Source of the DNA: Opitutus sp. GAS368 | Lineage (GTDB): Bacteria; Verrucomicrobiota; Verrucomicrobiia; Chthoniobacterales; Chthoniobacteraceae | Direction: 5' to 3' | DNA length: 64,000 nucleotides | Assembly (NCBI GenBank): GCA_943329925.2 | Contig: CALQFT020000002.1 | Location: 33-64,032 of the forward strand | Part shown: piece after piece, positions 10,876 through 35,567 of the stretch | Position numbering within the stretch: position 1 is the stretch's first letter | Layout: every line of letters starts with the position of its first letter | The notes under the pieces: generated by a model | What the model was told of the DNA's origin: nothing | What the model saw: the letters and a program-made list of their open reading frames with translations, nothing else | Databases searched by the model: none | Program-made: the position numbers and the translations under genes

Positions 10876-10940
10876 CGGCCGGTGTACATTGAGCTTTTTC
10901 GAACGTGCTTTTTACTCCGTTTTGCAAAACGATTTGAGGC

Positions 10941-11780
10941 ATGGCAGAAAAGGTTTGGCTCATTACCGGTTGTTCCAGCGGCTTTGGTCGGGCATTGGCC
11001 GAGGCGGCTCTTGAACGCGGCGATAGCGTCGTGTTGACGGCTCGCAATGTCGCGATGTTGGCGGATTTTGCGGCGCGCTGGCCTACTACCACGCACCTCG
11101 CAACTTTGGATGTGACTGATTTCGCACAGATTCAACAGGTTGTTGATGAGGCAGTCCGTGTGTTTGGGCGAATAGATGTTCTTGTCAACAATGCGGGCTA
11201 TGGTCTTTTAGGGTCGCTGGAAGAGTGTTCCGCTGCTCAGATTCGCCGCAATTTTGAGGTCAATTTCTTTGGCCCGCTCGAAATGATTCGCTGCGCCCTT
11301 CCTCATTTTCGAGCGGCGAAATCCGGGCACGTGCTCAACATCAGCGCGGCCGCAGCGATTACGAATTACGCGGGTTTTGGAATTTACGGCTCGGCAAAAT
11401 GCGCTCTTGAAGGAATGAGCGAATCTCTGGCTGCTGAAGGTCGTTCTTTCGGTTTGAAAGTTACCATTGTGCAGCCGGGACCGTTCCGTACGGACTTTAT
11501 ATCCCGTTCATTGGATCGGGCTCAGGTGACTTTGCCCGAGTACGAGGGAAGTGTCGGCAAGTTTACAAAGTTCATTGATGGCATTGATGGGAAGCAGCCG
11601 GGCGACCCTGTTTTAGCCGCTCAGGTTATATTGCAAGCCGTCGAGGCAGAGCGCCCGCCGCTGCGACTGGTGATTGGAAAGTATGCGCTCGATAAAGCGC
11701 GCCGTACAATTACTGGGCGCGATACCGAGCTAAAAGCGTGGGAGGTTGCGAGTCTTGCTGCCGACGGCCCGGCAAGGTAG
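10941..11780 (+). CDS. SDR family oxidoreductase
   Basis: The N-terminal Rossmann motif VWLITGCSSGFGRALA, NNAG, and the catalytic YGSAK region (GIYGSAKCALEG). Confidence 0.85.
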   Translation: MAEKVWLITGCSSGFGRALAEAALERGDSVVLTARNVAMLADFAARWPTTTHLATLDVTDFAQIQQVVDEAVRVFGRIDVLVNNAGYGLLGSLEECSAAQIRRNFEVNFFGPLEMIRCALPHFRAAKSGHVLNISAAAAITNYAGFGIYGSAKCALEGMSESLAAEGRSFGLKVTIVQPGPFRTDFISRSLDRAQVTLPEYEGSVGKFTKFIDGIDGKQPGDPVLAAQVILQAVEAERPPLRLVIGKYALDKARRTITGRDTELKAWEVASLAADGPAR

Positions 11781-11912: not shown

Positions 11913-12836
11913 TTATTGGAGTAACTCGCTAACGCGGCGGCCGGCCTCAATCACGAGGGGGGCATGTCTTTGTTCGGCCTCCGCATCCAAACGGGGTGCG
12001 GGCGCGGTAATCCATACGGAGGCACACACGCGGCCTTCAGCGTCAAAAACCGGGGCTCCAAGACAGCGGAGACCTTCCATGGTTTCGCCCAAGTCCATGG
12101 CATAGCCTTTAGCGCGGACCTCCCGCAGGTGGGTTGCAAAAGCCTTCTTGGACGTGATGGTCGCGGCTGTGAGCCGGGTCAGCTCCGCCTGCGAAAGAAG
12201 GAGTTCTAGTTCCGCTTCCGGAAGCCAGGCCAGCATCACTTTTCCAGGGGCACCCGCGTGCAACGGTCCCCGCGCCCCAGCCTCCACGTAATACTTGAAC
12301 AGACTCAGGCCGATAACCCGCTCCAAGACTATGCAATCGAATCCGGATCTTATCCCGATATGCGCGGATTCGCCCGTGGAATCCCTCAGCAGTCGTAGCG
12401 TTTCCCAAGAAAGTTGGGCAAGACTGCGGTCTTCCCGCTTTGGTTGGACAAGGGTCAGCAGTTTTTGCGTTAGCAGGAAACGGGTTCCGGAGAGATCTCG
12501 CTCAACGTAGCCGTGCACGGAGAGCGCCTTTGTGAGCCGGAAAGCCAGGTTTGCTGAAAATCCGAGAGCCTCTCGGATCTCTCCAGTTGTCACTCCTCCG
12601 GAATGGGCGCTGATGAATTCCAGCAGAGCGAGGGATCGGTCCAAGGCAGGAGTTTGAACGCCGGAATCACGGACCTCGAAAACACGCACGGCTGCTTTCC
12701 TTTTGGTTTTGATCTGCAGTTTCATTTCGGATTTCAGCGGCAAGGCGGAGTCCTTTCCATTATCGGTTCTGTGCGCACCAGCCGCTTTGGATTTCGGGGT
12801 TCCTTTACTGGATGAAGGGCCTGACTTGAAGTTCAC
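11913..12836 (-). CDS. IclR family transcriptional regulator with Lys-rich N-terminal extension
   Basis: LDRSLALLEFISAHSGGVTTGEIREALGFSANLAFRLTKAL is the wHTH. An IclR-type effector domain follows (GESAHIGIR...GAPVFDAEGRV). Confidence 0.8.
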   Translation of the reverse strand: MNFKSGPSSSKGTPKSKAAGAHRTDNGKDSALPLKSEMKLQIKTKRKAAVRVFEVRDSGVQTPALDRSLALLEFISAHSGGVTTGEIREALGFSANLAFRLTKALSVHGYVERDLSGTRFLLTQKLLTLVQPKREDRSLAQLSWETLRLLRDSTGESAHIGIRSGFDCIVLERVIGLSLFKYYVEAGARGPLHAGAPGKVMLAWLPEAELELLLSQAELTRLTAATITSKKAFATHLREVRAKGYAMDLGETMEGLRCLGAPVFDAEGRVCASVWITAPAPRLDAEAEQRHAPLVIEAGRRVSELLQ

Positions 12837-12854
12837 GCAAAAACGTTTCTGGAG

Positions 12855-14168
12855 TTAAATAATTTCCAGGCCGGAGAGCGGCCCTGTGCTAGACCCAAAG
12901 GAATCCACCTCCGCCCCAAAACACTGGAGCATCGAAACGAATAGATTGCTCAGGGGCGCATTGGCCTCCCGGTTGAACGCGAGGTGCTGGCCGTGTTTGA
13001 ACCCGCCCCCGGCAAGCAGGATGGGCAGGTTCGAATTGGCGTGAGTATTGGCGTCTCCCATGTTGCTGCCATATAGAACCATCGTACGATCCAACAACCG
13101 CCCGCCTTCCTCTCCTTTTGCCGAGAGACCTGCGAGCAGATTCTTGAGCAGCCGCATTTGCTGGCAATCAGCATCCTCAAGCTGTTTCACCTTCTGCTCG
13201 GCCTGTCCGTGATGGCTCAGGTTGTGATATCCGTCCGTCGTGTTCTGGTTCTCGTGCAATTGAAACACGGGGGTGGCAAAGGCGTCCACCATCAGGGTGA
13301 CAATCCGGGTTGAGTCAGATTCAAACGCCAGTTCAGCCATGGAGAGTAGTAGCTGGAACTTTTCAAAAAAGAGCTTCTTGTCCTTTAACTCGGGAGGTTC
13401 AGCCTGTGCGTGCGCCGGCTTGGGTTTGGTTTCCCATTCCCTTGCTGTGGCGAGGCGCTGCTCCACCTCGCGCACCGAAGTGAAATATTGTTCCAACCGG
13501 TGGCGGTCGTCTTGTCCGAGCGAACGACTGAAGCGCTCTGTCTGTTCGAGCAGCGTATCAAGAATGCTCCCGCGTTCTTCAAGGCGGTGCAGTTGCTGGT
13601 CAACCTCCTTTTGGTTTCCTTGCAAAAACATCTTCCGGAAAACCACCAAGGCGCTGTCCTCAGCAGGTAACAGGACTCCATCCCGAGTCCAAGAGAGGCT
13701 GCGATTCGCCCTGTCGATGTTCACGCCAAGGTTGAGGGATGCAAACCGCGTCACCTGCCCGATTTTTTCTGCGGCAAATTGGTCCAGCGAAATCTGATTT
13801 CTAAAGCCGCTTTTGGTGGGGCCGCGGGCTGCGGTCAGAAAACAGTTCTCCGTGCTGTGTCCACCCACGACTCCCGGATGCGACAAGCCGCTGAACACTG
13901 TGAAATTTTGACGGTACTCCGAAAGCTCCTGCAAATAGGGAGAGAGCTCGTAATCCCGGCCATTTTCACTCGGAAAGAAAAGCTTTGGCAGGACGCCGAG
14001 ATTGTTGGATATCAGCAGCATTCGGCGCGGAGCCGCTGTTTGCGAGGCGCTGCTGAAAACTGGCGTCATGCACTCCAGAAACGGGAGTGCTAGCGTCACG
14101 CCCACGCCTTTCAAAAAGGATCGGCGCGCCACCGATGCAGACGGAGAGGAGACATGGGGAGCTTTCAT
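12855..14168 (-). CDS. DUF1552 domain protein (Tat signal)
   Basis: The twin-arginine leader RRSFLKGVGVTLALPFLE and the overall pattern match DUF1552 proteins, which pair with DUF1592-type proteins in Planctomycetes/Verrucomicrobia. Confidence 0.8.
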   Translation of the reverse strand: MKAPHVSSPSASVARRSFLKGVGVTLALPFLECMTPVFSSASQTAAPRRMLLISNNLGVLPKLFFPSENGRDYELSPYLQELSEYRQNFTVFSGLSHPGVVGGHSTENCFLTAARGPTKSGFRNQISLDQFAAEKIGQVTRFASLNLGVNIDRANRSLSWTRDGVLLPAEDSALVVFRKMFLQGNQKEVDQQLHRLEERGSILDTLLEQTERFSRSLGQDDRHRLEQYFTSVREVEQRLATAREWETKPKPAHAQAEPPELKDKKLFFEKFQLLLSMAELAFESDSTRIVTLMVDAFATPVFQLHENQNTTDGYHNLSHHGQAEQKVKQLEDADCQQMRLLKNLLAGLSAKGEEGGRLLDRTMVLYGSNMGDANTHANSNLPILLAGGGFKHGQHLAFNREANAPLSNLFVSMLQCFGAEVDSFGSSTGPLSGLEII

Positions 14169-14180
14169 AAGGTCACGGCT

Positions 14181-16730
14181 TTACAGGCACCCCGAGGTTC
14201 CGAGGAAAACAGGGCTTTGAATCAGTCCGAGCAGCAGGTCGCGCACGCGGAAGCCATCCCTCGCGCACGAGTCCAAAATGGCTTCGATTGCGGGCCTGTC
14301 CGAAAAACGCACCGGCGTTCCCGTGGCGTATACGGTGAATTGATGAAGTAGGTTGCGTGCCAACTGGCGGGGATTTGCGGCGAGAATTATTTTCAAGTCG
14401 CGGATATTATTAAAGCGCCCACCCTCTAACATTTTTCCGCTGGCATCCACCGGGAGCGAAAGTGTGTAGGCGAAATCGTGCCCAGCTCTATCGATGCCTT
14501 TGATGGTGTCGCCTTTTTCCATCCCGCGGTAACGGGCGCGCCAACCTCCAAGAATATCGAAGTTTTCAAGAGCCAGCCCCACGGGGTCGAACTTCGCATG
14601 ACACGCAGCGCACGTCTTGTTTTGCGTGTGGGCGGCGAGTAATTCGCGAATGGTTGTGGCTCCCCGAATGTCGGGTTCTACGGCGGGAACGCTTGCAGGC
14701 GGCGGCGGCGGGGGTTGCCCGAGGAGCCGCTCCATCACCCAGGCTCCCCGCACGACGGGCGAAGTGGTGGTGCCGTTTGCTGTGACTTTCAAGATCGCGG
14801 CCTGTGTCAGTAGACCGCCGTAGACACTGTTTTCTGGCAATGACACCTTTCGCACTGAGGAGCCGGAGAGGACAGGCAACTGGTAATGCTTGGCAAGACG
14901 ATCATTGGCGAAGGTGAAATCCGCTTGCACGATAACTTTAGCCGGTAAGTTTTCACGGATCATTGCTGAAACAAAGGCGCGAGTTTCCAGCTCCATGCTT
15001 TCCACAAGGTAGTCGTCAAACCGGTATTCCGGATATAGACGGATGTCGGGATCATCCCGCCGCACATGCCGCAAGCTCAGCCAATACGCAGTGAAGTTGT
15101 CTATGAACCGCTCGAAGCGCTCGCCCGCGATGAGGCGGTCCGCCTCCGAGCGCAAGGTTGATCGGTGTCGCAATGCTCCGGCTCGCGCTAGGGCGCTGAG
15201 TTTTTCATCCGGGCGCATGTTGTTAAGGAAGTATGACAGCCGCGACGCCACTGCAAAGTGATCCTCTGCATGAACTGGTTCGCGCAGGTAGAGAAAATGT
15301 CCAGAGCACAAGAGGGCCTTGTATCCGGCTAAAAGCGCCTCGGAGAAGGCGTCTCCTTTGTCGAGGCGTCGAAGCACCAGTGCCTCAAACAGGGCCAACT
15401 CTTCTTCCGGAATCCTCTCGCGAACCGCGAGGTTTGCGAAGCGTCGCAGCAGTCGCCTCGCCTCGTCTTTGGGTTGAGGCGGCGTTGCTCCGACAGGCAA
15501 CTCGTCGAAGAGAACCTTGTGGGACTGCGGTGGCCATAAGGCTGGGTTGATAGGCCCCTCTACCTCCAGCCATTGCACTGCGATTCCCGGCTGGCCGTCA
15601 GCTGGGAGGGGAGGATAGCGGTAGGTGGGGCCCCCTCCATTGATGTTCAATGCGAGCGGAACTGGTAGGCCCAGAGGGCTGTATTCAAAGGTCTCCTTTT
15701 CCTTAAGGAGTACGGTTGTCTCGTACACTCCCACTTCAGGTTGAATATCCAAAATTCCGCCGGTCGCTCGAACATCGCCTGAAACATCCGGCCCTGAGGG
15801 TTTCCGGGCGCGGAACGTCATCGCTTGGGGCATCTCGGCGGGGAGGAGTTTAAACCCGGCGAGCTGTTTCACCGCACGGGCGGAAAAGCGCACCCGGTAT
15901 TCCCCGGAGACTTTAGCCACAAATCCCTTTGGATATCCGTAATAAGGCCAGTGGGCGGAGCGGAACAAGGCCATCTCCAGCCCGCCATCCTGATCCAATT
16001 TCGCGGCCTCTTCCTTCGGCAGTTTCGGATCGATAACGGCCGCACGGGCGTCTCTGGCGAAAAACATCGCCTCCTTGTTTCCGAAAGTACTCAAAGAAGA
16101 AAATAGCCGGGTTCCCACCGCCCTGTAGACATCTCCTTTCGGGGGAGTGGGCTGAGTCACCATGGCTTCGCGCAAGGCCGTCTCTGCCGCATCCAGATAA
16201 GCCGTCAACTGCACCCGTGACATGTCCAGTGTCTCTGTCGCCTTGTTAAAGTGATTCCCTTCGCGGTCTTCCGGCAGGATGTCCTTAATGTCCAACAACG
16301 GCATCTGCAAGAGGTCGCGCAGGTTGTTTTGGTATTCCTCTCTGTTGAGCCTGCGCAGGGGGCCGCGGCCTTGGGCTGCAACTTCTTCGCTATCGACTTT
16401 AAAAAGGGAACCGCCCAAGAGGCGCACCATCCCGGCTCTGTCTTGATCGGGTAAATCGCCCTTTTTGGGAGGCATCTCGCCTTTTTCCATGCGGTCATGA
16501 ATCCTGATCCAGCGCTCGCGAAGGGACCTGTCGTGTAGGTCCTGCGGTAGTTTGGTTAGGTCGAGACCGCCCTTTGCTGTATCTTTGTCGTGGCATTCCA
16601 CGCAGTGGCTTTCCAACAATGGGAATAGCTCTTTAAAGGACGTGGCACCCGAAGCGGGGGCAGCACTCGCTGGTTTCAGTCCCACTAGGGAAACGAGGCT
16701 AAAGCAGAGAAGCTGGACGTAAACTTTCAC
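14181..16730 (-). CDS. DUF1592/DUF1588/DUF1585-type putative heme-binding protein
   Basis: 849 aa with a signal peptide and two CxxCH motifs (CVECHDKD near the N-terminus, CAACHAKFDPVG near the C-terminus). Its architecture and its pairing with DUF1552 are typical of the PVC family. Confidence 0.8.
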   Translation of the reverse strand: MKVYVQLLCFSLVSLVGLKPASAAPASGATSFKELFPLLESHCVECHDKDTAKGGLDLTKLPQDLHDRSLRERWIRIHDRMEKGEMPPKKGDLPDQDRAGMVRLLGGSLFKVDSEEVAAQGRGPLRRLNREEYQNNLRDLLQMPLLDIKDILPEDREGNHFNKATETLDMSRVQLTAYLDAAETALREAMVTQPTPPKGDVYRAVGTRLFSSLSTFGNKEAMFFARDARAAVIDPKLPKEEAAKLDQDGGLEMALFRSAHWPYYGYPKGFVAKVSGEYRVRFSARAVKQLAGFKLLPAEMPQAMTFRARKPSGPDVSGDVRATGGILDIQPEVGVYETTVLLKEKETFEYSPLGLPVPLALNINGGGPTYRYPPLPADGQPGIAVQWLEVEGPINPALWPPQSHKVLFDELPVGATPPQPKDEARRLLRRFANLAVRERIPEEELALFEALVLRRLDKGDAFSEALLAGYKALLCSGHFLYLREPVHAEDHFAVASRLSYFLNNMRPDEKLSALARAGALRHRSTLRSEADRLIAGERFERFIDNFTAYWLSLRHVRRDDPDIRLYPEYRFDDYLVESMELETRAFVSAMIRENLPAKVIVQADFTFANDRLAKHYQLPVLSGSSVRKVSLPENSVYGGLLTQAAILKVTANGTTTSPVVRGAWVMERLLGQPPPPPPASVPAVEPDIRGATTIRELLAAHTQNKTCAACHAKFDPVGLALENFDILGGWRARYRGMEKGDTIKGIDRAGHDFAYTLSLPVDASGKMLEGGRFNNIRDLKIILAANPRQLARNLLHQFTVYATGTPVRFSDRPAIEAILDSCARDGFRVRDLLLGLIQSPVFLGTSGCL

Positions 16731-16776
16731 GGCGTAGAAATCCGGAGAGATCTTAGAGGATGCGTATAAATGCCTT

Positions 16777-17859
16777 TCAACGAGTCGGTTTCAGCACGTC
16801 CTCCAGCCGCTCTGAATCGTAGGCGTGCACGTTGGTGATCCGCATTTCTTCCAAACCAGACTTGGCGTCAACGACCCCCTCGATCTGGTCCACCAGTTGG
16901 GCTCTATTGAGCCGCCAGACTACGCGCCCTTCGGAGTCAATCTCTGCAAGCAGATCCGAACCTTCCTCGATTGCTTTCAAATGATAATCTCCGCACGCCA
17001 CTAGCAAACGTCCGTTTTCTAGCTGCTGTGTACCCAGTAAATAACGGCACTTCAGTCCCAACTCCTGGGCGCTCCAAGACCGCTCCACCGCTCCTTTGCC
17101 ATTCAACTTTAGCAACTGCTTGCCCGTGGAAGTTGCCACCCAGAGCACCCCTCCCTGCAGCGGGGTCACTCCGAATGCTGTATGGCCCGCGGGGGTCGGC
17201 TTGAGCATGGGATCTAATAAAAGGCTCTGGAGAATCTCTCCTGTGCCTTCTGCCACTTTCAAAAGCGTCCTCCGTCCGTATTGGGCTACCCAAAAAGCCT
17301 TCTCTCCCGGAACCAACCGCACCGTTCGGTAACGCGAATGCAAAGAGTCCTCGGTAAGCTCTGGAAGCTGCGTCTCGCTCAAAACATGACCGGCCCGATC
17401 CACGACTCGTATCTGTGCCACCCCGGAGTCCATGAGCGCAAAGCGCGCTCCACCGTCCATCACGGCGCAGCTGTTAGCCTCTGTTCCTTTCGTTCCATTA
17501 CGCGCCGGATGGGAGAGGACCAAGTTCTTTTGACGGTCGAACACGGCCAGGCCGCCTTTGTGTGCGTAGGCGATCCCGCCATCGGGAAGCCGCCAAGCCT
17601 CGTAGATTCCCGAGTGTCCCTGCTTGGCAAGCGAGTCAGTCACTTTGCCTAAGCGATTGATCTCAACGACCTGATTATCTGCAGCCAAAAGCATTCGTTC
17701 CTCGGCATGCCCCAAACGCGGAAGAGTCAGAATCCAGAGCGCTGCTGCGACTCCGGCGATCCAGCCGCGGGCGCACCTGTTGTGTGAGACGGGCAGGCGG
17801 TTCTGGTTTGGGGAGAAGCGACCCCGCGCGGTGGCGTCAGAAGGGAGGAGCAGTGGCAT
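16777..17859 (-). CDS. hypothetical secreted/membrane-anchored beta-propeller-like protein
   Basis: N-terminal hydrophobic anchor (WIAGVAAALWILTLP). Repetitive segments rich in G, W and V suggest a PQQ/BamB-like propeller. The assignment is weak. Confidence 0.5.
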   Translation of the reverse strand: MPLLLPSDATARGRFSPNQNRLPVSHNRCARGWIAGVAAALWILTLPRLGHAEERMLLAADNQVVEINRLGKVTDSLAKQGHSGIYEAWRLPDGGIAYAHKGGLAVFDRQKNLVLSHPARNGTKGTEANSCAVMDGGARFALMDSGVAQIRVVDRAGHVLSETQLPELTEDSLHSRYRTVRLVPGEKAFWVAQYGRRTLLKVAEGTGEILQSLLLDPMLKPTPAGHTAFGVTPLQGGVLWVATSTGKQLLKLNGKGAVERSWSAQELGLKCRYLLGTQQLENGRLLVACGDYHLKAIEEGSDLLAEIDSEGRVVWRLNRAQLVDQIEGVVDAKSGLEEMRITNVHAYDSERLEDVLKPTR

Positions 17860-18030
17860 ATATGATTCTATATCCGCAGTGGCGGTTCATTCATAGAGTC
17901 TTTTTTAACAGAAACATTTGAGTTCAGCGGCTTGATAGATCGGCTCATACAGCGCGATTTATTTATCCTTATACACTTGGGCTGTTTTAAGAATTTAAAA
18001 ACAGGCGAGTGAGAAATGGAGTAATACCAT

Positions 18031-18182
18031 CTCTTTTAGGTTTATGGATGATTAAAAGACCTCAGCGCTTGGGACCGCGGAGCCCGAGCTCCGCAAGGAC
18101 TGTCTGAGTTTTTGGAGCGTCAAAGCGGAGCAGGGGCTCCGCGGTCCCGGGAGAGAAGGACCAGTTTTTCTTCAAGATTTGC
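18031..18182. repeat. palindromic MITE/REP-like element, copy A
   Basis: About 91 percent identical, by my manual alignment, to the reverse complement of 25495-25648. It contains a 24-bp inverted repeat (GGGACCGCGGAGCCCGAGCTCCGC ... GCGGAGCAGGGGCTCCGCGGTCCC) around a spacer of about 30 nt. Confidence 0.8.
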
Positions 18183-18671
18183 ACGACGTACAAAATCCAA
18201 AGAAGACAGCGAAGGACGAACGGGCGTCGCCCGTAAAACGCCCGCAGAGGCGCATGGTCCGAGACTTGGTGGAATCTATTGGCCGCAAACTTCGCACGAA
18301 CGACGACGAGCACGTCGTTTACGTTAGTCATTAGACTGCGGCAACGAGGCGGTGCCATCGCGCGGTGCCAGCCGTGTGTCGCAAGTCATGATCCGCGGCA
18401 CCTCGTCGCCAGCTATATCGAGCTCTGGAGGGAGGCCTCAAATGACGAAAGGCTCGCAGTGGCCAATGGACTTCTCCTGACGCCAAGCATTAAGCCGCAA
18501 ACGGCATCGTACTCGGGTTTGGATACATTGCCGTGAGGTTCTCCTGTATCCAATCTGAGGCATTGGAGGCTGGGTGCAATCATTGCCAGAAGACGCTTGG
18601 TTGTCGTCGTATTGGAGACGAGCTCGTCGCAGGCGGTTGGGTGGATGGGCGATTGGAGCCCGCTGATACTA

Positions 18672-18715
18672 GAAAAGGCAAACGCCCCGGAAGCATCGAA
18701 GCCTCCGGGGCGTTT
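18672..18715 (-). terminator. Rho-independent terminator downstream of rplT
   Basis: Stem AAACGCCCCGGA / TCCGGGGCGTTT at 18680-18715. On the minus strand it is followed by GCCTTTTCT. Confidence 0.6.
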
Positions 18716-18741
18716 GTGGGTTGGGAGGGAAAGCAAAAAGC

Positions 18742-19125
18742 TTAAGCAGCTTTTGGTACACCCGGCTTTGCAGCGAGAGCGACCTTGGCTTTTTCGATAA
18801 GCACCTTGAAAGCACCTTCGTCCTTGATTGCGATATCTGAGAGGACTTTGCGATCCAAGTCAATCCCGCAAGCTTTGATCCCTTCAATGAAGCGGCTGTA
18901 AGTCAAGCCGTGGACCCGAGCGGCTGCGTTGATGCGCTGTTGCCAGAGCATCCGGAAATTACGTTTGCGGGTTTTGCGGTCGCGATAGGCCCAATACTGC
19001 GCCTTCATCACGGCGTTTTTGGCGTAGCGAAACAGTTTGGAACGACGACCGCGAAAGCCCTTGGCTTTATCCAGCGTCTTTTTTCTGCGAGACCGGCTGG
19101 CCGGTCCGTTGGTTGCTCTTGGCAT
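18742..19125 (-). CDS. rplT: 50S ribosomal protein L20
   Basis: MPRATNGPASRSRRKKTLDKAKGFRGRRSKLFR...WQQRINAAAR... Confidence 0.95.
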   Translation of the reverse strand: MPRATNGPASRSRRKKTLDKAKGFRGRRSKLFRYAKNAVMKAQYWAYRDRKTRKRNFRMLWQQRINAAARVHGLTYSRFIEGIKACGIDLDRKVLSDIAIKDEGAFKVLIEKAKVALAAKPGVPKAA

Positions 19126-19349
19126 CTGATGGGTTGGTTTCTTTTGCTTTCAGCGGATTGTTTTCTCCAGGAAATGTCCGGCGTCTCACCCGCTGAGGAG
19201 TCCGGTTTACCCTGTAAAACAGGTGCGGCCGGACAGACGCTTGGGACTGGGCCACTGGCAGCACCAAGAGGTGAGCCAGGGTTCGCGCGACTCAAAGTGC
19301 ACAAGGCACTTCAAGCATGTGTCTCCGCGCAAGGAGGTTGCCGTTTCGC

Positions 19350-19559
19350 TTACGCGAAAGGCATGCACTCCTTGATGCGAGCCACCATCGTCTCGTGCAC
19401 AAGGCCAGCCTTTCCGAGATTGCGTTTACGCTTGGCATTCTTGGAAGAAGCCAGGTGACGCAGGCCCGGTTTACGGCGTAGCAACTTGCCCGAGGCGGTG
19501 AGTTTGAACCGCTTGGCCACGGCTTTTTTAGTCTTTCGACGTGCAATGGATCTAGGCAT
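19350..19559 (-). CDS. rpmI: 50S ribosomal protein L35
   Basis: 69 aa and basic: MPRSIARRKTKKAVAKRFKLTASGKLLRRKPGLRH... Confidence 0.9.
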   Translation of the reverse strand: MPRSIARRKTKKAVAKRFKLTASGKLLRRKPGLRHLASSKNAKRKRNLGKAGLVHETMVARIKECMPFA

Positions 19560-20090
19560 GGGGCGGGGGATATTAAGGAGTTTTCAAAGAGAGGCAATCT
19601 GTTTTTGCACAAATCACACTCTCCCGAATTCACTCACAGCAAATAACCCTGTGTCGTTTCGCTCTGAGCGGCACGGCTTGATGCATTGTCTAGTAACAGA
19701 TAATGCTGGGGCAATGTTACTTGAGCCAGTATCTTCACAAGCTGTAGCAGGGTGGTGAATTTGTTGAGCTGCCGCCGGGCGCACTTGTGGGGTGCTTAAT
19801 CGCGGTGTGGGGAACGGAAGCGTCTCGTGGCGTGGGGTAAGTTTGCTAAAAGAATAAGGCCGGCGGTTATGACTGACTTGCTCGCTGAGTTGGCGGAGCG
19901 TTCCAAGAATGTGTTTGCGATGAAGTTAGGAGCACGCTTAAGACGCATTGAGGAGTAAGAGGGGAGGCTGGGAAAATGGCTAAATGACAGAAGCTTGAAG
20001 ATAAGCTAGGAATCAGATCTCAAATCTTTTGCAGAAAAACATTGCCACCCTTGTTAATTCTCGTAGCCTGCCCAACCCACAAGCAACTTT

Positions 20091-20360
20091 ATGGCTAAGA
20101 CGAGCTGGATCGAACGTGAAAAAAAGAAGGCGGCAACTGTCGCAAAATACTCCGACCTGCGTGCAGAGTTGAAGGCTAAAGGCGATTATATCGGCCTCTC
20201 CCTTCTTCCCCGCAACGCAAGCCCCGTGAGAATGTCGAAACGCTGCCTCCAAACAGGCCGCAAACGCGCGTTTATCGGGCGTTTCAAGCTCTCGCGCATC
20301 GCCTTCCGCGAATTGGCCTCACACGGGTTAATCCCCGGAGTGACCAAGTCGAGTTGGTAG
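20091..20360 (+). CDS. rpsN: 30S ribosomal protein S14 (89 aa, non-zinc C-minus form)
   Basis: MAKTSWIEREKKK...RNASPVRMSKRC..TGR.RAFIGRFKLSRIAFRELASHGLIPGVTKSSW. It has no CxxC pairs. Confidence 0.9.
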   Translation: MAKTSWIEREKKKAATVAKYSDLRAELKAKGDYIGLSLLPRNASPVRMSKRCLQTGRKRAFIGRFKLSRIAFRELASHGLIPGVTKSSW

Positions 20361-20456
20361 AATCCCTTTTTTACAGTTTTGCGAGATCCGAGTCGCAGGT
20401 AAATCCTGTGACTCGGTTCTTTTTTGCAGTGTCCCCCCTAGCGTTTGCAAGTTAGT

Positions 20457-21800
20457 ATGTTACCTGAAGTTGGATCGAATGTGCACAACGTGCCTGTGTT
20501 CCTTCAACTGGGAGCGGTCCTCGTCCTTGTTGGATTAAACGGCTTTTTCGTCGCCTCGGAGTTCGCAATCGTGAAGGTGCGCTCCAGTCAACTGGAGGCG
20601 TTGGAGGCTTCTGGCGACAGAAAGGCGAGGCTCGCCATCGAGGTCACTGAAAACCTCGAGGCCTACCTTTCCGCCACGCAGTTGGGCATCACGCTGGCTA
20701 GCTTGGGCTTGGGTTGGGTGGGACAGGACTTCGTCGCTGGACTAATCGCGCCAGCACTCCGGGCCATGGGGTTCATTTCCGAGACGGTCGTCCATGCCGT
20801 CTCCGTGGGCGTTGCCTTCGCCTCGATGACCTTCCTCCATATCGTACTGGGTGAACTTGCCCCAAAGTCGTTGGCCATCTCCAAGCCGGTGCCGACCACA
20901 ATCTGGGTCAGCGTCCCCTTGGGGATATTCTACCAGATGTTTCGTCCGGCGATCTGGTTTTTGAACTGCTCGGCTAATATTTTTCTGCGCAAAATCCTCC
21001 GGCTTAGTCCAGTAGGGGAACACGAGCTGGCGCATTCCGAGGAGGAGTTGCGCGTGATTCTCGCGGAGAGTGAGGACGCACGGCAGGTGACGCCAATTGG
21101 CAAAGAGATACTGATTAACGCTTTAGATCTCCGTAAGCGAGTTGTCCGGGACATCACTACGCCTCGCAAGGAGGTTGTTTTCCTCAACACAGAGGACACT
21201 TTCGAGGAAAACCTCAAGCATGCGGTGAGCTCGCAGCACACTCGCTTTCCAGTGTGCGAAGGGCATTTGGACAACGCCATCGGCTTGGTTCACATCAAGG
21301 ATTTGATGTTACAAATGCGTACAGCCCAGCCGGATCTGATGAAGGCGCGCCGCGATATCCTGCCTGTGCCCGAAATGATGCCTTTGGAGCGATTGCTGAC
21401 GTTTTTCCTCACGAAGCACGCGCACCTCGCCCTGGTGTTGGACGAGTATGGTGGAACGGTCGGAGTGGTCACCTTGGACAACGTGCTGGCGGAGATTGTC
21501 GGAGATATTCAGGACGAGTTTGACACCGAGTTGCCCGAGTTCAAACGCGTGAATGCCGATGAATTTGTCGTTGATGGCAGCCTTGCCCTCTACGAACTCA
21601 AAGATCTCGCGGGGTTAAACTTGGAGAGCGAAGACGTCAGCACTGTGGGCGGCTTTGTCACCCACCTTGCTGGCAACCTGCCCGCAGTGGGCGATCAGGT
21701 GCGGATCGAACCTTTTGAAGTCACGGTTTTGAAAGCGGATGGACGGCGTGTGCTGGAAGTGCGCTTTCGGCGAGTCCGCGCCGAAGTCTCCGACGCGTAG
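20457..21800 (+). CDS. CNNM/HlyC/CorC family transporter (DUF21-CBS-CorC_HlyC)
   Basis: DUF21 membrane domain (NGFFVASEFAIVKVR...SATQLGITLASLGLGW), then a CBS pair region and a CorC/HlyC C-terminal domain. ATG at 20457; the track starts at TTG 20445. Confidence 0.85.
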   Translation: MLPEVGSNVHNVPVFLQLGAVLVLVGLNGFFVASEFAIVKVRSSQLEALEASGDRKARLAIEVTENLEAYLSATQLGITLASLGLGWVGQDFVAGLIAPALRAMGFISETVVHAVSVGVAFASMTFLHIVLGELAPKSLAISKPVPTTIWVSVPLGIFYQMFRPAIWFLNCSANIFLRKILRLSPVGEHELAHSEEELRVILAESEDARQVTPIGKEILINALDLRKRVVRDITTPRKEVVFLNTEDTFEENLKHAVSSQHTRFPVCEGHLDNAIGLVHIKDLMLQMRTAQPDLMKARRDILPVPEMMPLERLLTFFLTKHAHLALVLDEYGGTVGVVTLDNVLAEIVGDIQDEFDTELPEFKRVNADEFVVDGSLALYELKDLAGLNLESEDVSTVGGFVTHLAGNLPAVGDQVRIEPFEVTVLKADGRRVLEVRFRRVRAEVSDA

Positions 21801-31407: not shown

Positions 31408-32367
31408 ATGACCCCATCCAAGCCCGTTCCTGTCAGCATCCTCACTGGTTTTCTCGGTGCCGGCAAAACCACATTGCTTAACTACATCCTCAAACAGCAG
31501 CACAGCTACAAGTTTGCAGTGATCATCAACGAGATAGGCAAGATCGGTGTCGACGGCCAACTCGTGGAGCGACAGCAGGAGGAAATTGTGGAAATGAGCA
31601 ACGGCTGTTTGTGCTGCACCGTTCGCAAAGACCTTGTCAAAGGGGTGCAAAACCTCCTCAAAAAGGGCGGCTTCGACTATCTGCTGATCGAGACCACGGG
31701 CATCGCCGAACCCGGCCCCATCGCACAGACCTTCCTTAACATCCCGGCCCTTCAGCAGCTCGTGCGCATGGATTCCATCATCACCGTGGTTGATGCGGAG
31801 CACATTCTCAAGCAGCTCAGTGAGTTGGAAACTGCCCGCGAACAGATCCGGATGGCCGACTTCCTTCTGCTGAACAAAACCGACCTCGTGGATGAAGCCG
31901 CCCTGCTCACCGCCGAGGCAAAAATCCGCGAACTAAATCCGCACGCGACTTTGTTTCGGACCAACCAGTCGCAAGTTAACCTCAACGAGTTGCTCGACAT
32001 GCACGCCTTCGACGTGGAGCAAAAGCTCTCAGTGGATCCCAAGTTCCTGGATGAACTCAGCCAGCGGCATCACCACGAAATTAATTCCGTCTCCTTTGAA
32101 TTCGAGAAGCCCTTCAGCGTGGAAGCCCTCGAAATGTTTGTTCAAGAGCTTTCCGAAAAAGAAAAAATCTTCCGTTCCAAGGGTTTTCTCTGGATCGAGG
32201 GCAATCCGCGACGGGCCATTTTCCACGGGGTGAACAATCGCTTTACCCTGCTGTGGGATCGGCTCTGGGAAAAAGGCGAGGCGCGCAAAAGTCAGTTGGT
32301 GTTCATCGGGCGGGAGATCAACGAGGGACGCATTCGCGCTGAGTTGGAGCAGTGCATGGTGAAATAG
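31408..32367 (+). CDS. COG0523/CobW-family G3E GTPase (putative metallochaperone)
   Basis: [17 protein letters not shown] (P-loop), the metal motif [14 protein letters not shown], and a CobW_C-like C-terminal domain. Confidence 0.85.
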
Positions 32368-32509
32368 GGCGGGGCATTTAGGACGCAGCGTGCAGGCCGG
32401 ACGAAGCCCGTCAAAGAATAAGGAACAACACATCCTCGCCAATGCCGCCTGGCTCAACTGCGCGGGGTTGGCTCAACACCCGAAGTGAGCATGGATGAGG
32501 GATGCGTTT

Positions 32510-33808
32510 CTATAAAATAAGTCTGAGCATAATTTGTTCTGGGGAAAAACTTTCCTTGAACATCGCCATGCTCGCCTGGCTCAAGATTTGACTATGCCTC
32601 AGGGCGCTTAATTCGCGCGGAATATCTGTATCCCGGGCCATGCTCAAAACACTTTGGAGTTGGATTGAGTTGTTTTGTCCCGTTTCCATTGCCATCTGAA
32701 GATGATTTTGAGCAGCAGCATTGCTCGCCTCCAGTTGGGCGAGGTCGGAAAGAGCAGAATCAACGGTGCCGGCGCTAATTTGAGAAAGCGTGGGGGCCGG
32801 GATTTCCTCGAGGTGGCCCGGAGTGGTTGAGGTGGAACCGGATTTTTCCAAAATGTAACCATCAACGGTTGTTGTTAAAGTGAGGAAACCCAGAACCATA
32901 TTGTAAGCGTTAATCCATTTATTCGGGCTTGCAGTATAGCCGGAAGAAAACTTCGCCAATGTGTTTCCAGGAATGTCCTGCCCATTGATTTGGATCATCA
33001 CAAATGGATAAGCAGAGCTCCACGCGGAGAAGGTAAAAGGTTCTCCGGAGACCCATTCCCAACCGTTTGAGGTGAGCTTGGCGCCTAGCCAAGCTTCATT
33101 GTTGAAATTCGCCCCCAAGGACGCTTGGATTTGGTTCCATTCGGTTTGACTGGTCACTGTTGCCAAATACCCCCCCTTGGATTCCGCATCTGATTTGGCT
33201 TCGCTCCAAGTGCCGGGTTTAGTCACATACGCGTAGCTGTTTGGATTTTGCGTGCTGGTTCCCGCGACGTAACGATACGAAACATTAGCGAACACATCAG
33301 CTAAACCCGAGTCGCTCAGGTTGGGCTGGGGGAGTTGGATGGACTGGGTGCCATTGGCGTTGGACACTTGGAGCGCCTCGCCGTTGGTGGCTGTCGCAAA
33401 CAGGGATAATCCGTTAAAAGACCCACTTTTCAACTGATTGTAGACTTCTTTGAGTTGGGAAAACTCTGCTTGATAGGAAGCCTTGTCGGACTCCGAGCGG
33501 GTCGCGTCGTTAAGCATCCCCTTCAACTCGCTGACTTGGTCCAGAAGCGCTCTAATGCCCATTAGGGCATCCTCTTGCGCATGGAGGTAAGACAAGGCGC
33601 TGGACATGGTTGCCATGCGAGTGGTTACAGCAGCAGACGTTGCGCTAATTTGCATCGAAACGGCTGCCCCAGAGGGATCTTCGGCATTTGTTTGGACCGT
33701 CGAGCCAGAGGAAAGCCGGCCCAGACTTAATTGGGTAGCTGCAACAGCACGTTGTAACGGCTGAACATTTCGCGCTGAAAAGTTGCTGAGAGGATTGATT
33801 GTTAACAT
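32510..33808 (-). CDS. flagellin-like protein with C-type lectin-like central domain
   Basis: Flagellin N-terminal helices (INPL..., GRLSSGSTVQTNAEDPSGAAV, ...SFNGLSLF). Flagellin C-terminal helices (AAQNHLQMAMETGQNNSIQLQSVLSMARDTDIPRELSALRHSQILSQASMAMF...LRLIL). Central CTLD motifs: TWSEAKSDAESKGGYLATVTSQTEWNQI, EAWLGAKLTSNGWEWVSGEPFTFSAW and GYILE. Confidence 0.75.
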   Translation of the reverse strand: MLTINPLSNFSARNVQPLQRAVAATQLSLGRLSSGSTVQTNAEDPSGAAVSMQISATSAAVTTRMATMSSALSYLHAQEDALMGIRALLDQVSELKGMLNDATRSESDKASYQAEFSQLKEVYNQLKSGSFNGLSLFATATNGEALQVSNANGTQSIQLPQPNLSDSGLADVFANVSYRYVAGTSTQNPNSYAYVTKPGTWSEAKSDAESKGGYLATVTSQTEWNQIQASLGANFNNEAWLGAKLTSNGWEWVSGEPFTFSAWSSAYPFVMIQINGQDIPGNTLAKFSSGYTASPNKWINAYNMVLGFLTLTTTVDGYILEKSGSTSTTPGHLEEIPAPTLSQISAGTVDSALSDLAQLEASNAAAQNHLQMAMETGQNNSIQLQSVLSMARDTDIPRELSALRHSQILSQASMAMFKESFSPEQIMLRLIL

Positions 33809-34118
33809 CGCTCAGGGGAGATTTGCGAGGATTGAAGGCTTCTTGGACGTTGAGAAAACGAGGCAGGAATTGTATACGTTTTTTAGCTGAGTGGAAATCA
33901 GCATGCAATTCCAAAAGGCTCGAAACATATGCATTTAAACTCAGCAAGGGAGTGAGTTGAATGGGGGCGCGTCTATCAGGAAATGGGGGTTCAAATGGCA
34001 TGCGGTTTACACGAGTAGCCGCGCTGAGTTTGGGTTTGCTGGCAATGAAATTTTGTCGAGTTGGGCTGACTTTTGAGTTTGGCGGGAGCGTTTGAGCATC
34101 GATTATTACGGTTTTCTC

Positions 34119-34571
34119 ATGAATCACTCCACAACACGCTGGGCGGCACGGTTGGGCATCGGCGGGCCGGTGGGTTCTGGGAAAAACATGCTGGTTTTGC
34201 GGCTTTGCCAGTGGCTGCGCGAGGAGTTGTCCATTGTCCTGGTCACCAACGACATCGACACCCGCGAGGACGCCGAGTTTCTTGCACGCAAGGAGGCGCT
34301 GGCTCCCGGGCGCTTTGGGGATGGTGCGAACGTGGTGCGGAAGCTGCACGACTTGCAGCAAGAGGAGGTCTGGGTGGGATCGAGTCGGCTCGGGGAGAGG
34401 GGTGTGTGCGTCCGTGTTTTGGCTCAGGATGCGCCGACATTGCGGGCGGTCCAGGAGAAGTTGCGGGCAAATACGTTACGCGGCGCTCGGTCGGCGGGAG
34501 CCCAGTTTGCGGCGGGTGGTGGGTCGCTAAAACTCAGTGTCGCGACACACTTGTTTCCAGATTGGCGTTAA
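34119..34571 (+). pseudogene. ureG: urease accessory GTPase UreG remnant (N-terminal ~65 aa only)
   Basis: [55 protein letters not shown] matches the UreG N-terminus, but the P-loop Thr is Asn. The conserved GVETGGCPHTAIRED block and everything after it are missing. The remaining ORF looks like random sequence. Confidence 0.6.
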
Positions 34572-34676
34572 ATTGTGACAAATTTTCTTGTCGAAGCACG
34601 ATATTTGTAGGCAAGACAGAGCTCGACACGGGTTGTAACAGCCCCCCGGCTGCCCGTCTCACAACCAAACATACCT

Positions 34677-35567
34677 ATGACGAACAAATCCGTCGCACAG
34701 ATCTGTGCAATCGCAGCAGTAGTAATTATGCCCTCCCTTTCCTGGGCCGGCACCCCCACCAAGTCCGTGGCTTCGAAAGCTCCCGCCCCGGAGAAACTCA
34801 ACGAAAGCTTCATCACCGGTGATATCGGTCTGAATGTTGTTTCCTCCTATTATTTCCACGGCGTTATGGAGGCCAACCACTCACCGAGCTTCCAGCCTTA
34901 CGCGGATATATTCCTCAAGGCGTATGAAGGCGATGGCTTCCTCAACAAGGTCGTCTTTGGTATTGGGGTTTGGGAATCCTACAACACCGACGCTAAGTAC
35001 GGACGTACTGGCAAGAATTCTGCCTGGTTTGAACATGATGTGACCCCTTCTGTCGCATTGAGTTTCGGCAAGGTGACAATCACGGAAACCTACCAGTTCT
35101 TCTCCTCGCCCAACGATCGGTTTTTAGACAGTCAGGCATTGAACTCGAAGCTCTCCTTCGATGACGCGGATCTACTCGGAGCATTTGCCCTTCATCCGTC
35201 GGTTTCCTTGACTCATGAAATTGATGGCAAGCAGGCAATTGATGGCCGTGACGCCGCTAATGCTGGCCCCGCCTCAAAGCACGGCAACTACTGGGAAGCT
35301 GCTGTGGCACCCAGCTATTCTGCTGGCCCTGTGACGCTGACTCTGCCTTTGGTCATAGGGATTGGTTCGCAAAATTACTATAAAGGGAACGGTTACGGCT
35401 TCTTCTCTGCCGGACTTAACGTCGCCTACACGCTGCCTATTTCCAAGAGCTACGGCACTTGGACGGCGAACGCAGGCGCGACTTACTACACGATCGACAA
35501 CAAAGTTGTTGGCAACAATGCCAACAGAGATGTTGTAGCCCAAGGCGGGCTTGGCGTTGCGTTCTAG
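34677..35567 (+). CDS. outer-membrane beta-barrel protein (TorF/Gcw_chp-like putative porin)
   Basis: Signal peptide (AIAAVVIMPSLSWA), alternating amphipathic strands and a C-terminal ...GGLGVAF. The N-terminal pattern ITGDIGLNVVSSYYFHGV resembles TorF-family porins. Confidence 0.55.
   Translation: MTNKSVAQICAIAAVVIMPSLSWAGTPTKSVASKAPAPEKLNESFITGDIGLNVVSSYYFHGVMEANHSPSFQPYADIFLKAYEGDGFLNKVVFGIGVWESYNTDAKYGRTGKNSAWFEHDVTPSVALSFGKVTITETYQFFSSPNDRFLDSQALNSKLSFDDADLLGAFALHPSVSLTHEIDGKQAIDGRDAANAGPASKHGNYWEAAVAPSYSAGPVTLTLPLVIGIGSQNYYKGNGYGFFSAGLNVAYTLPISKSYGTWTANAGATYYTIDNKVVGNNANRDVVAQGGLGVAF

Follow-up and report, generated by a model that had tools for sequence, protein, structure and literature searches.

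Flagellins are known to carry foreign functional domains in their hypervariable region, and such domains co-assemble into the filament (PMC5595980). Sixty-one types of hypervariable-region domain were listed by Eckhard et al. in 2017, including peptidases and vWFA, sialidase-like, NPCBM and Ig domains (PMC5595980), and a 2024 survey, according to its main text, used AlphaFold models to group the outer domains of flagellins into 682 structural clusters (PMC11532411). In Sphingomonas sp. A1, the cell-surface flagellins p5 and p6 bind alginate with a Kd of ~1e-9 M at a cleft in the alpha (D1-like) domain, and the flagellins of this organism also form a flagellum under other conditions (PMC9751261). 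A prophage-encoded flagellin of Enterobacter, FliC-P, together with TldR, remodels flagella and was described as the first such case (PMC13418256). The gene considered here lies at positions 32510-33808, on the minus strand, of a 64,000-nucleotide stretch of contig CALQFT020000002.1 from Opitutus sp. GAS368; this whole stretch is referred to as the window. Its product is a flagellin core in which a C-type lectin-like domain (CTLD) replaces the D2/D3 domains, an architecture that is established as far as prediction allows.

The open reading frame (ORF) has an ATG start and encodes 432 residues in the ORF list of the window, with a sequence exactly as quoted in an earlier note that was made from the DNA alone and had proposed a flagellin with a lectin-like insert. 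The Pfam profile Flagellin_N matches residues 17-139 (E = 3.9e-11; 43.6 bits, above the gathering cut-off of 26.6), and in a sequence search of the PDB, FliC (1ucu) aligns with both termini of the protein (E = 3.9e-13), the C-terminal stretch covering residues 334-428. A full-length AlphaFold2 model, with a predicted local distance difference test score (pLDDT) of 86.2, contains helices at residues 6-34, 45-99, 106-127, 346-392 and 396-431 and a beta-hairpin at 146-159, while an alpha/beta domain at residues 177-336 is enclosed by the D0/D1 helices. This is the textbook flagellin layout, and the best 50 matches of the model in the PDB (Foldseek) are flagellins without exception. As a yardstick of core conservation, 74 positions were taken that are at least 85% conserved among 29 ordinary flagellins. 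Judged by this table, the D1 packing core is mostly kept in the window protein, and the core residues retained include E94, L95, D101, T103, D108, Y112, E115, L119, F131, N132, G133, L136 and F137.

The insert occupies the place of the flagellin outer (D2/D3) domains and is the sole outer domain of the window protein, preceded by an LADVF junction in the N-terminal D1 segment. The earlier note had placed it at residues 176-321 (nucleotides 32846-33283); the two ranges agree with each other, and the modeled fold runs further, to about residue 336 (nucleotide 32801). Pfam Lectin_C matches residues 200-263 (E = 8.1e-7; 30.2 bits, cut-off 22.6) over profile positions 4-71 of 107 only, and a hidden Markov model of the insert's own family scores 120.8 bits over residues 185-328. 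In the PDB sequence search, residues 192-269 align with animal CTLDs, namely PLA2R (7qsr, E = 3e-10), DEC-205, the mannose receptor and the sea raven (type II) antifreeze protein. When residues 171-345 were modeled by AlphaFold2 from a 46-sequence alignment with bacterial CTLD copies, the resulting model had a pLDDT of 92.3 and a predicted template-modeling score (pTM) of 0.80, and Foldseek returned 418 PDB matches at E <= 1e-3. The best 50 of these are all CTLDs, among them CD23, SRCL, MGL, Mincle, mannose-receptor CRD4, tetranectin and type II antifreeze protein, each with a probability of 1.00 and with target-normalized TM-scores mostly of 0.6-0.78. The CTLD landmarks W201, A204, A208, G212-G213, L215-A216, W240-L241-G242, W250, W252, G255-E256 and W263 are invariant in the alignment of the flagellin family, and the same core landmarks, W201 to W263, are conserved over the 46 CTLD sequences. 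The earlier suggestion of a CTLD-like central domain is therefore borne out by the predicted structure.

The carbohydrate-recognition domains (CRDs) of animal C-type lectins such as CD23, MGL, Mincle, mannose-receptor CRD4 and MBP have the same fold as the window CTLD (TM-score up to 0.78) and share with it the landmarks W..A...A..GG.LA, WLG, W.W..GE and W. They differ in their disulfides and in the EPN/QPD or WND ligands, none of which the window CTLD has, and ahead of its final strand the window CTLD has an additional beta-hairpin-like stretch, MVLGFLTLTTTVD. Neither of the two conserved disulfide bridges of animal CTLDs can form in the window protein, which contains no cysteine at all; the earlier note had already remarked that the eukaryotic disulfide cysteines are absent, and this is normal for the bacterial CTLD subfamily in question. 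Many bacterial copies are cysteine-free ("DAE ... YILE"), and others retain a C...C pair.

The direct family of the insert is formed by the Lectin_C modules in giant surface proteins of the PVC superphylum and of other bacteria; these modules are 30-46% identical to it and are of the cysteine-free "DAE ... GY(I/L)xE" type. When 1.84 billion representative proteins were searched exhaustively with phmmer, 5,559 of them matched the insert at E <= 1e-3 and 689 at E <= 1e-10. Many of these are giant proteins with up to 14 CTLD copies each; the alignments are mostly confined to the N-terminal half of the domain and reach at least 120 residues in 11 of 543 copies. The closest full-length copies are those of P0121 (7,192 residues) and P0124 (4,110 residues), and the carriers of such copies include a 4,110-residue Ig/NHL protein, TSP3-repeat proteins, a Ser/Thr-kinase ectodomain with an FGE-sulfatase domain and a CBM6 protein. 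The carriers are extracellular multi-domain proteins in binding contexts, where the modules stand in tandem arrays with Ig, NHL, TSP3, CBM6 or kinase domains, whereas the window gene has a single copy within a flagellin. The insert is probably drawn from the very large CTLD pool that the giant surface and secreted proteins of these bacteria provide.

Whether the insert qualifies as a lectin is a separate matter. The consensus of 40 family copies reads TW.EAK.DAE..GGHLA.I.S..EW ... WLGA.D...G.W.WVTGEP..Y..W..G(E/Q)P(N/D)N..G.E(D/H)YL ... W(N/D)D ... GY(I/L).E, in which the EPN/QPD motif (Ca2+ site 2), the loop Glu and the WND motif (beta-4 strand) correspond to the Ca2+-site and sugar-ligand positions of animal C-type lectins. 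Among 318 family copies that could be anchored, [EQ]P[ND] is present in 213; both [EQ]P[ND] and W[ND]D occur in 171 (54%) and neither in 51 (16%). The window protein and its three closest relatives, P0002-P0004, all four belong to the class with neither motif. At the canonical sites the window protein has AYPFV ... GNTL ... WIN, with GNTL replacing the loop Glu, and P0002-P0004 have DYPLV ... WTN. The Lectin_C profile match ends ahead of the ligand-binding half of the domain. This long-loop half is aromatic-rich and, at 54-59% identity within the window clade, is as conserved as the remainder of the CTLD. Because the EPN- and WND-type motifs are replaced, the classical Ca2+/carbohydrate site is, judging from the aligned residues, lost in the window protein. 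The fold is that of a CTLD, but calling the window domain a lectin is not justified, and the glycan-binding lectin that the earlier note had envisaged is not supported by the comparison.

A classical Ca2+-dependent CRD repeated along the whole filament, making a sugar-binding adhesive flagellum, is improbable. Such a flagellum would accord with the established fold, whose closest structures are true lectins (CD23, MGL, Mincle and mannose-receptor CRD4), and with the more than half of the anchorable family copies that keep EPN/QPD and WND. Sister proteins also keep parts of the site (QPG...E...WND in P0006, and QPD in the first CTLD of the proteins from loci L003 and L005, where it stands in a canonical GGQPDNGG), and some carriers of related CTLDs also hold CBM6 modules. 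These points are countered by YPF or YPL in place of EPN, WIN or WTN in place of WND and GNTL in place of the loop Glu in the window protein and P0002-P0004, and by a Pfam match that does not extend past profile position 71 of 107. Many members of the CTLD superfamily have a protein or ice as their ligand, or none, and the matches obtained here include type II antifreeze proteins.

The combination of a flagellin with a CTLD seems to be undescribed. CTLD, lectin or CLECT has no entry among the 61 domains of Eckhard et al. (PMC5595980), and the word "lectin" is absent from the main text of the survey that defined 682 clusters (PMC11532411). The earlier note had remarked that a lectin displayed on a filament is not known to be described; flagellins with foreign inserted domains and a polysaccharide-binding flagellin (Sphingomonas A1 p5/p6; PMC9751261) are, however, already known. 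A close parallel in design is flagellinolysin (FliA(H) of Clostridium haemolyticum; PMC5595980), in which, as in the window protein, the two D1 segments enclose a domain with clear homologs outside the flagellins. In both, the idea is a function multiplied by polymerization on the filament surface, and both exist alongside ordinary flagellins in the same phylum. In flagellinolysin, however, the insert is a peptidase and incorporation into the filament was shown, whereas the window protein has a CTLD from which no catalysis is expected, a far more diverged core and a putative place in the filament. Sphingomonas p5/p6 (PDB 2zbi and 3k8v) belong to the flagellin family and are among both the structural and the sequence matches of the window protein; they are credited with polysaccharide binding and a non-propeller location but have no lectin-type insert, in contrast to the discrete CTLD found here.

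The architecture is rare. A whole-protein search of 5.8 billion clusters found it complete in only five other proteins, P0002-P0004 (51-53% identical to the window protein), P0005 (33%) and P0006 (31%), while the remaining matches involved the termini alone. A profile search of the same clusters separated CTLD flagellins, at 502 bits or more, from ordinary flagellins, at 230 bits or less, and added P0324 (585 residues) and P0325 (590 residues) to the former; the proteins listed there with the architecture are P0001-P0004, P0324 and P0325 only. In a scan of 185,579 species-representative genomes, the relatives were confined to metagenome-assembled genomes (MAGs) of Verrucomicrobiota, namely Spartobacteria, Chthoniobacteraceae and Opitutales. 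The search for the same architecture that the earlier note had proposed thus yields a rare clade, not a well-annotated family. P0003, P0005 and P0006 carry the JGI label FlgL (hook-associated protein 3), which is merely the COG name; identity with FlgL was rejected, as flagellin models beat FlgL models (1e-17 vs 9e-11) and every structural match is a flagellin.

Some members of the family contain two CTLDs. These genes encode 585-653 residues, come from Chthoniobacteraceae/Spartobacteria MAGs, are solitary among housekeeping genes and have cores that are less diverged than that of the window protein; the other long flagellins in the loci L003-L005 are without a CTLD. In a phylogeny of a 250-column D0/D1 alignment with 100 bootstraps, all CTLD flagellins form one clade (83/100) that is sister to the ordinary verrucomicrobial flagellins, and the window clade within it has full support (100/100) and a long branch. 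The window clade and the double-CTLD clade also have the insertion point and an L.DV junction in common. The single D0/D1 clade, together with the shared insertion point and junction, points to a CTLD that was acquired once, at the usual position of the hypervariable region.

Comparison with the 51-53% relatives reveals an inverted pattern of conservation. Identity amounts to 54-60% over the CTLD and only 40-55% over the D0/D1 segments, so that the insert is the most constrained part of the protein. These relatives have no frameshifts and keep all CTLD core residues as well as the D1 core. The window gene itself is present on at least 10 contigs of several metagenomes, in copies that match it completely or to 98-100%, with the ORF intact in every copy seen; it is real, and neither a one-off nor an assembly artefact. 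A pseudogene or N-terminal truncation was considered, as members of its cluster are given as 350-381 residues, and was rejected: in strain L017 the N-terminal coding sequence and 300 nucleotides upstream are identical to those of the window, so the shorter entries are internal start calls on identical DNA. The window gene is intact and selectively maintained. It is accordingly very improbable that the gene is a relic in decay, left to drift in a lineage that is no longer motile. The diverged core, the solitary position, the lack of a recognizable flagellar promoter and the truncated appearance of a neighboring cobW/ureG-like ORF would suit such a relic, but intact copies across several metagenomes, relatives at 51-53% identity without frameshifts and with conserved CTLD and D1 cores, and the confidence of both structure models do not.

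The best explanation as a whole, with about an even chance of being right, is that the protein is a specialized subunit of the flagellin family that displays a non-canonical CTLD as a binding module. It would be exported unfolded through the flagellar type III apparatus, a route with which the lack of cysteine is compatible (the ordinary flagellin of locus L007 is likewise cysteine-free). By packing of its D0/D1 helices it would join a filament or a segment of one, where its role is probably that of a specialized or minor subunit and not of the chief propeller flagellin, with the CTLD projecting outward. A non-canonical, Ca2+-independent surface of the CTLD is proposed for binding because the classical EPN/WND Ca2+-sugar site is absent, and candidate ligands are polymers, particles or components of the cell surface. 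As a specialized subunit, the protein may be under its own regulation. In favor of this explanation stand the architecture and both folds, the maintenance of the gene, the donor pool, the single origin and rarity of the clade and the lost canonical site. The host lineage also speaks for it, as other Chthoniobacteraceae MAGs (L008 and L009) have ordinary flagellin genes with sigma-28-like promoters, and so do the precedents of foreign hypervariable-region domains (PMC5595980) and of outer-domain diversity (PMC11532411).

A series of observations weighs against this explanation, the first of which concern the core. Of the two terminal domains whose profiles the earlier note had proposed to search, Flagellin_N passes, but Flagellin_C (residues 348-419, E = 8.4e-4) remains below its cut-off, at 20.1 bits vs 23; since FliC aligns to residues 334-428, the C-terminal homology to flagellin is nevertheless real. 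An ordinary verrucomicrobial flagellin scores 79.2 (Flagellin_N) and 74.0 (Flagellin_C) bits, compared with 43.6 and 20.1 for the window protein, and Flagellin_C reaches 63.0 bits in a double-CTLD relative and 33.7 in a phage relative. The window protein keeps 41 of the 74 near-invariant positions and its clade 39-42. The number is 53 in the phage proteins and 56-58 in the double-CTLD proteins, while ordinary flagellins have 50-74 of them. The changes affect the N-terminal N..N, R91 (Q here), the SRI motif and the C-terminal LAQAN, and E360 and M390-A391 are further changed D0/D1 residues. At the N-terminus, INPLSN stands in place of the usual INTN-type sequence, so that conserved Asn residues of ordinary flagellins become P6 and S8. 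NCBIfam flagellin models are not reached either (best 64.6 bits, curated cut-off 332), although an ordinary verrucomicrobial flagellin also fails them (131.8 bits), which makes these cut-offs uninformative for this phylum.

The second set of such observations concerns gene location and control. No flagellar gene was found in the 64-kb window, where about 45 ORFs were scanned and proved to be housekeeping or envelope genes, nor within 10 kb on either side of any chromosomal CTLD flagellin examined. Ordinary flagellin genes, by contrast, stand in tandem arrays, seven of them in L007 (5753-12806). About 18 ordinary verrucomicrobial flagellin genes (in L007, and also in L006 and L008-L013) have a common leader, made up of a hairpin, GYGACGACGGACNGTCGY, whose loop holds GGA, and of ATCAAGGAAG, which comes after it at 6-9 nucleotides before the ATG. 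The hag gene of Bacillus subtilis has two CsrA sites to which this leader is similar; the leader matched no Rfam family, and its fold z-scores were not significant. The leader and the AAGGAAG Shine-Dalgarno sequence are absent from all five distinct CTLD-flagellin genes, and the upstream region of the window gene contains neither a purine-rich Shine-Dalgarno sequence nor a hairpin leader. Several ordinary verrucomicrobial flagellin genes also have TAAA-N15-GCCGA sigma-28-like promoters, including those in other MAGs of Chthoniobacteraceae (L008 and L009), whereas the sigma-28 consensus TAAA-N14-16-GCCGAWAA has 0 matches in the window. The nearest sigma-28-like string upstream, TAAA-N14-GCCTTTTG, was discarded as a poor match. 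The sole promoter-like feature is a sigma-70-like TTTCCA-17-TACAAT at 33897-33869, and the scan that found it gave 2 matches against 1.3 +/- 1.0 expected by chance, which is chance level. An element, TTAAATCTGGAT...GAAT, is common to the upstream regions of L018 and L020 and is missing from the window.

Because the core has diverged, conservation is inverted, the gene is solitary and the control elements differ, incorporation into the propeller cannot be assumed, though none of these features proves that the protein lies outside the filament. The main alternative, somewhat unlikely, is a flagellin-derived protein outside the propeller, in which D0/D1 are kept only for secretion or for a short fiber or surface layer while the CTLD serves as an adhesin or receptor, much like Sphingomonas p5/p6. 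This alternative gains from the higher identity of the CTLD than of the core, from the 41 of 74 near-invariant positions, the long branch and the sub-threshold Flagellin_C, from the solitary gene in variable neighborhoods without flagellar genes nearby, and from the missing flagellin-type leader, Shine-Dalgarno sequence and sigma-28 promoter. It gains also from a divergent 290-residue flagellin-like neighbor in L022 that lies beside giant Ig/HYR/FGE-sulfatase and NHL genes, from the NHL/SBBP gene next to P0004 and from the precedent of cell-surface alginate-binding flagellins (PMC9751261). On the other hand, the full D0-D1 topology, including the beta-hairpin, is confidently predicted and matches filament flagellins only, most of the D1 packing core is kept, and no alternative secretion signal was identified. 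The propeller and non-propeller readings are not exclusive, since the Sphingomonas flagellins also form a flagellum under other conditions.

Two members of the family are carried by phages. The gene of P0005 (402 residues) occupies positions 10001-11209 of locus L015, on the 45-kb contig Ga0620986_10564, within the head module of a BPP-1-like podophage, where the order is TerS, TerL, a 195-residue ORF, the CTLD flagellin, a T7-type portal, Bbp19, a scaffold-like protein, an FGE-sulfatase-fold protein, the major head protein, holin and endolysin. The gene of P0006, a protein with 72% identity to P0005, lies on a 5.5-kb contig from another sample, ahead of the same portal and Bbp19 genes. Between the two, the termini are almost invariant and the CTLD is variable, which is the normal flagellin pattern. 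Both fall inside the CTLD-flagellin clade. The IMG/VR scan with the family alignment gave no match, and that with the phage pair one weak 53-residue match (L016); among 50,697 deposited phage genomes, P0005 had no match by tblastn. The phage link rests on two metagenomic contigs only, as nothing comparable was obtained from IMG/VR or the deposited phage genomes. The phage CTLD flagellins would constitute a second case of phage-encoded flagellin, independent of the earlier one, the FliC-P of Enterobacter. Only P0005 and P0006 have in common with FliC-P/TldR that a phage carries the flagellin gene, as the window gene is chromosomal; the verrucomicrobial phage differs in being BPP-1-like, in having the gene in its head-morphogenesis module and in having no TldR seen. 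No TldR/TnpB-like gene was found by Pfam and PHROG next to the window gene or in 21 kb of L015, guide RNAs not having been searched for.

That the window gene is a phage-derived or mobilized isoform, spread by a temperate phage and remodeling the host filament like FliC-P, for example by blocking flagellotropic phages or altering the surface, is quite improbable. Such an origin is suggested by the position of P0005 and P0006 (33% and 31% identical to the window protein) between the large terminase and the portal in two samples, by their place within the CTLD-flagellin clade, and by the documented existence of flagellum-remodeling prophage flagellins (PMC13418256). The gene and the DNA upstream of it also have a reduced GC content (0.49-0.54 over 32400-34200, vs 0.55-0.59 for most of the window); as evidence of horizontal transfer this dip was set aside, being modest and not decisive. 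Against a phage origin, no phage gene, integrase, tRNA-linked junction or repeat was found at the flanks of the window gene, whose synteny is kept in another strain; the grouping of the window protein with the phage proteins appears in only 15 of 100 bootstraps; and no TldR/TnpB-like gene was found in the 21 kb of phage DNA, nor anything comparable in the deposited phage genomes or IMG/VR.

Other features of the phage locus may be mentioned here. A diversity-generating retroelement, an idea prompted by CLec folds in a BPP-1-like phage, was rejected, as no TR/VR-like repeat was found in L015 or around the window gene. A 379-residue ORF in L015 is of the Exo_endo_phos type. A 58-nucleotide direct repeat (88% identical; 14040-14097 and 15483-15540 of L015) lies on both sides of the FGE-sulfatase-fold gene and repeats the 3' end of the scaffold-like gene upstream, which has the look of a scar left when a cassette was inserted. 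The flagellin termini of the window protein (E = 1.6e-11) and of P0005 (E = 1.1e-12) are matched by the family phrog_16088, which has 510 profile positions and the label "unknown function". Flagellin-like proteins are therefore already present, unlabeled, in phage protein families.

Table 1. Coordinates of the CTLD-flagellin gene, its parts and its upstream region in the window, and of the double-CTLD relatives in their own loci.
Feature	Position	Strand	Basis and remarks
Complete CTLD-flagellin gene	32510..33808	-	stop codon at 32510-32512; ORF list, Pfam, full-length model
N-terminal D0 segment, residues 1-34 (predicted helix 6-34)	33707..33808	-	model secondary structure
N-terminal D1 segment, residues 35-175 (helices 45-99 and 106-127, beta-hairpin 146-159)	33284..33706	-	Flagellin_N and model
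CTLD insert, residues 176-336	32801..33283	-	Lectin_C, family HMM, AlphaFold2, Foldseek
WLG, residues 240-242, counterpart of the CTLD core motif WIGL	33083..33091	-	invariant in family alignments
AYPFV, residues 266-270, at the canonical G(E/Q)P(N/D)N site	32999..33013	-	40-copy alignment, motif census; Ca2+/sugar ligands lost
WIN, residues 298-300, at the canonical W(N/D)D site	32909..32917	-	40-copy alignment, motif census; Ca2+/sugar ligands lost
C-terminal D1 helix, residues 346-392	32633..32773	-	model; Flagellin_C at residues 348-419; FliC alignment
C-terminal D0 helix, residues 393-432 and stop (model helix 396-431)	32510..32632	-	model, conserved-position table
FKESF, residues 417-421, replacing the near-universal LAQAN	32546-32560	-	conserved-position table
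Intergenic region upstream of the gene, between it and the divergent ORF at 34092	33809..34091	-	upstream comparison, promoter scan
Double-CTLD flagellin genes, 585-653 residues	L003 2170-4107; L005 10001-11962; L004 3417-5174 (= L022 10001-11758); L021 10001-11773

The window gene is monocistronic and lies between cobW (31408-32367) and a truncated cobW/ureG-like ORF, in a neighborhood that includes pta, cobW, aroB and purC. The truncated ORF (34092-34571, plus strand) has a CobW/HypB/UreG P-loop match over its first ~50 residues only, and is followed by a 296-residue ORF (34677-35567, plus strand) that has no Pfam match; the same split is found in L017. The stretch 34092-35567 may be a disrupted or rearranged GTPase gene beside the intact cobW. 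The housekeeping proteins of the window cluster at 90% identity or more with MAG proteins of Chthoniobacteraceae/Verrucomicrobiota, and the host is taken to be an uncultured, Chthoniobacterales-like verrucomicrobium. Further along the window, at 12855-16730 on the minus strand, a DUF1552 (HXXSHH) gene adjoins a multi-domain PSCyt/PSD gene (DUF1585/1587/1588/1592/1595, with a cytochrome c motif), a pair that is typical of the PVC superphylum (Planctomycetota and Verrucomicrobiota) and a useful taxonomic marker for the window. In L022, a region at 11926-21111 on the minus strand holds the gene of the divergent 290-residue flagellin-like protein ("KLASGS...", ending "...FAQAN...LKLYAL"), which is tail-to-tail with the CTLD flagellin and directly downstream of genes for a 2,184-residue Ig/HYR/FGE-sulfatase giant protein and a 569-residue NHL-repeat protein. 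In L018, the gene of P0004 is followed by that of an NHL/SBBP protein. Divergent flagellin-like genes may be linked recurrently with giant adhesin-like genes.

Flagellar filaments are natural display scaffolds, and each new type of outer domain widens the range of functions that a filament can have. The CTLD is among the most versatile binding folds, and its presence in a flagellin therefore points to a binding function. A note of caution is in order, as a Lectin_C match alone does not make a lectin and the classical sugar site is gone here. The interest of the finding lies mainly in the signal of exaptation and in the phage link, and not in a lectin activity, which the sequence does not support. 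In a broader and rather unlikely proposal, the CTLD flagellins would have been repurposed from propulsion to the display of a strongly conserved non-canonical CTLD as an adhesin or receptor, on an exported D0/D1 scaffold that is polymerized or anchored at the surface, and the same cassette, borne also by podophages, would re-coat the host filament on lysogeny or even form a virion fiber. The phage-borne sister branch widens phage-encoded flagellins to a new phylum and a new type of phage. The control of the CTLD-flagellin genes is unusual in being without the leader and promoter features that are common to the ordinary flagellin genes of the phylum, and an insert that is more conserved than the core raises the possibility that a flagellin was exapted away from motility. 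In the polysaccharide-degrading Verrucomicrobiota, candidate targets of such a protein would be particles, polymers or other cells.

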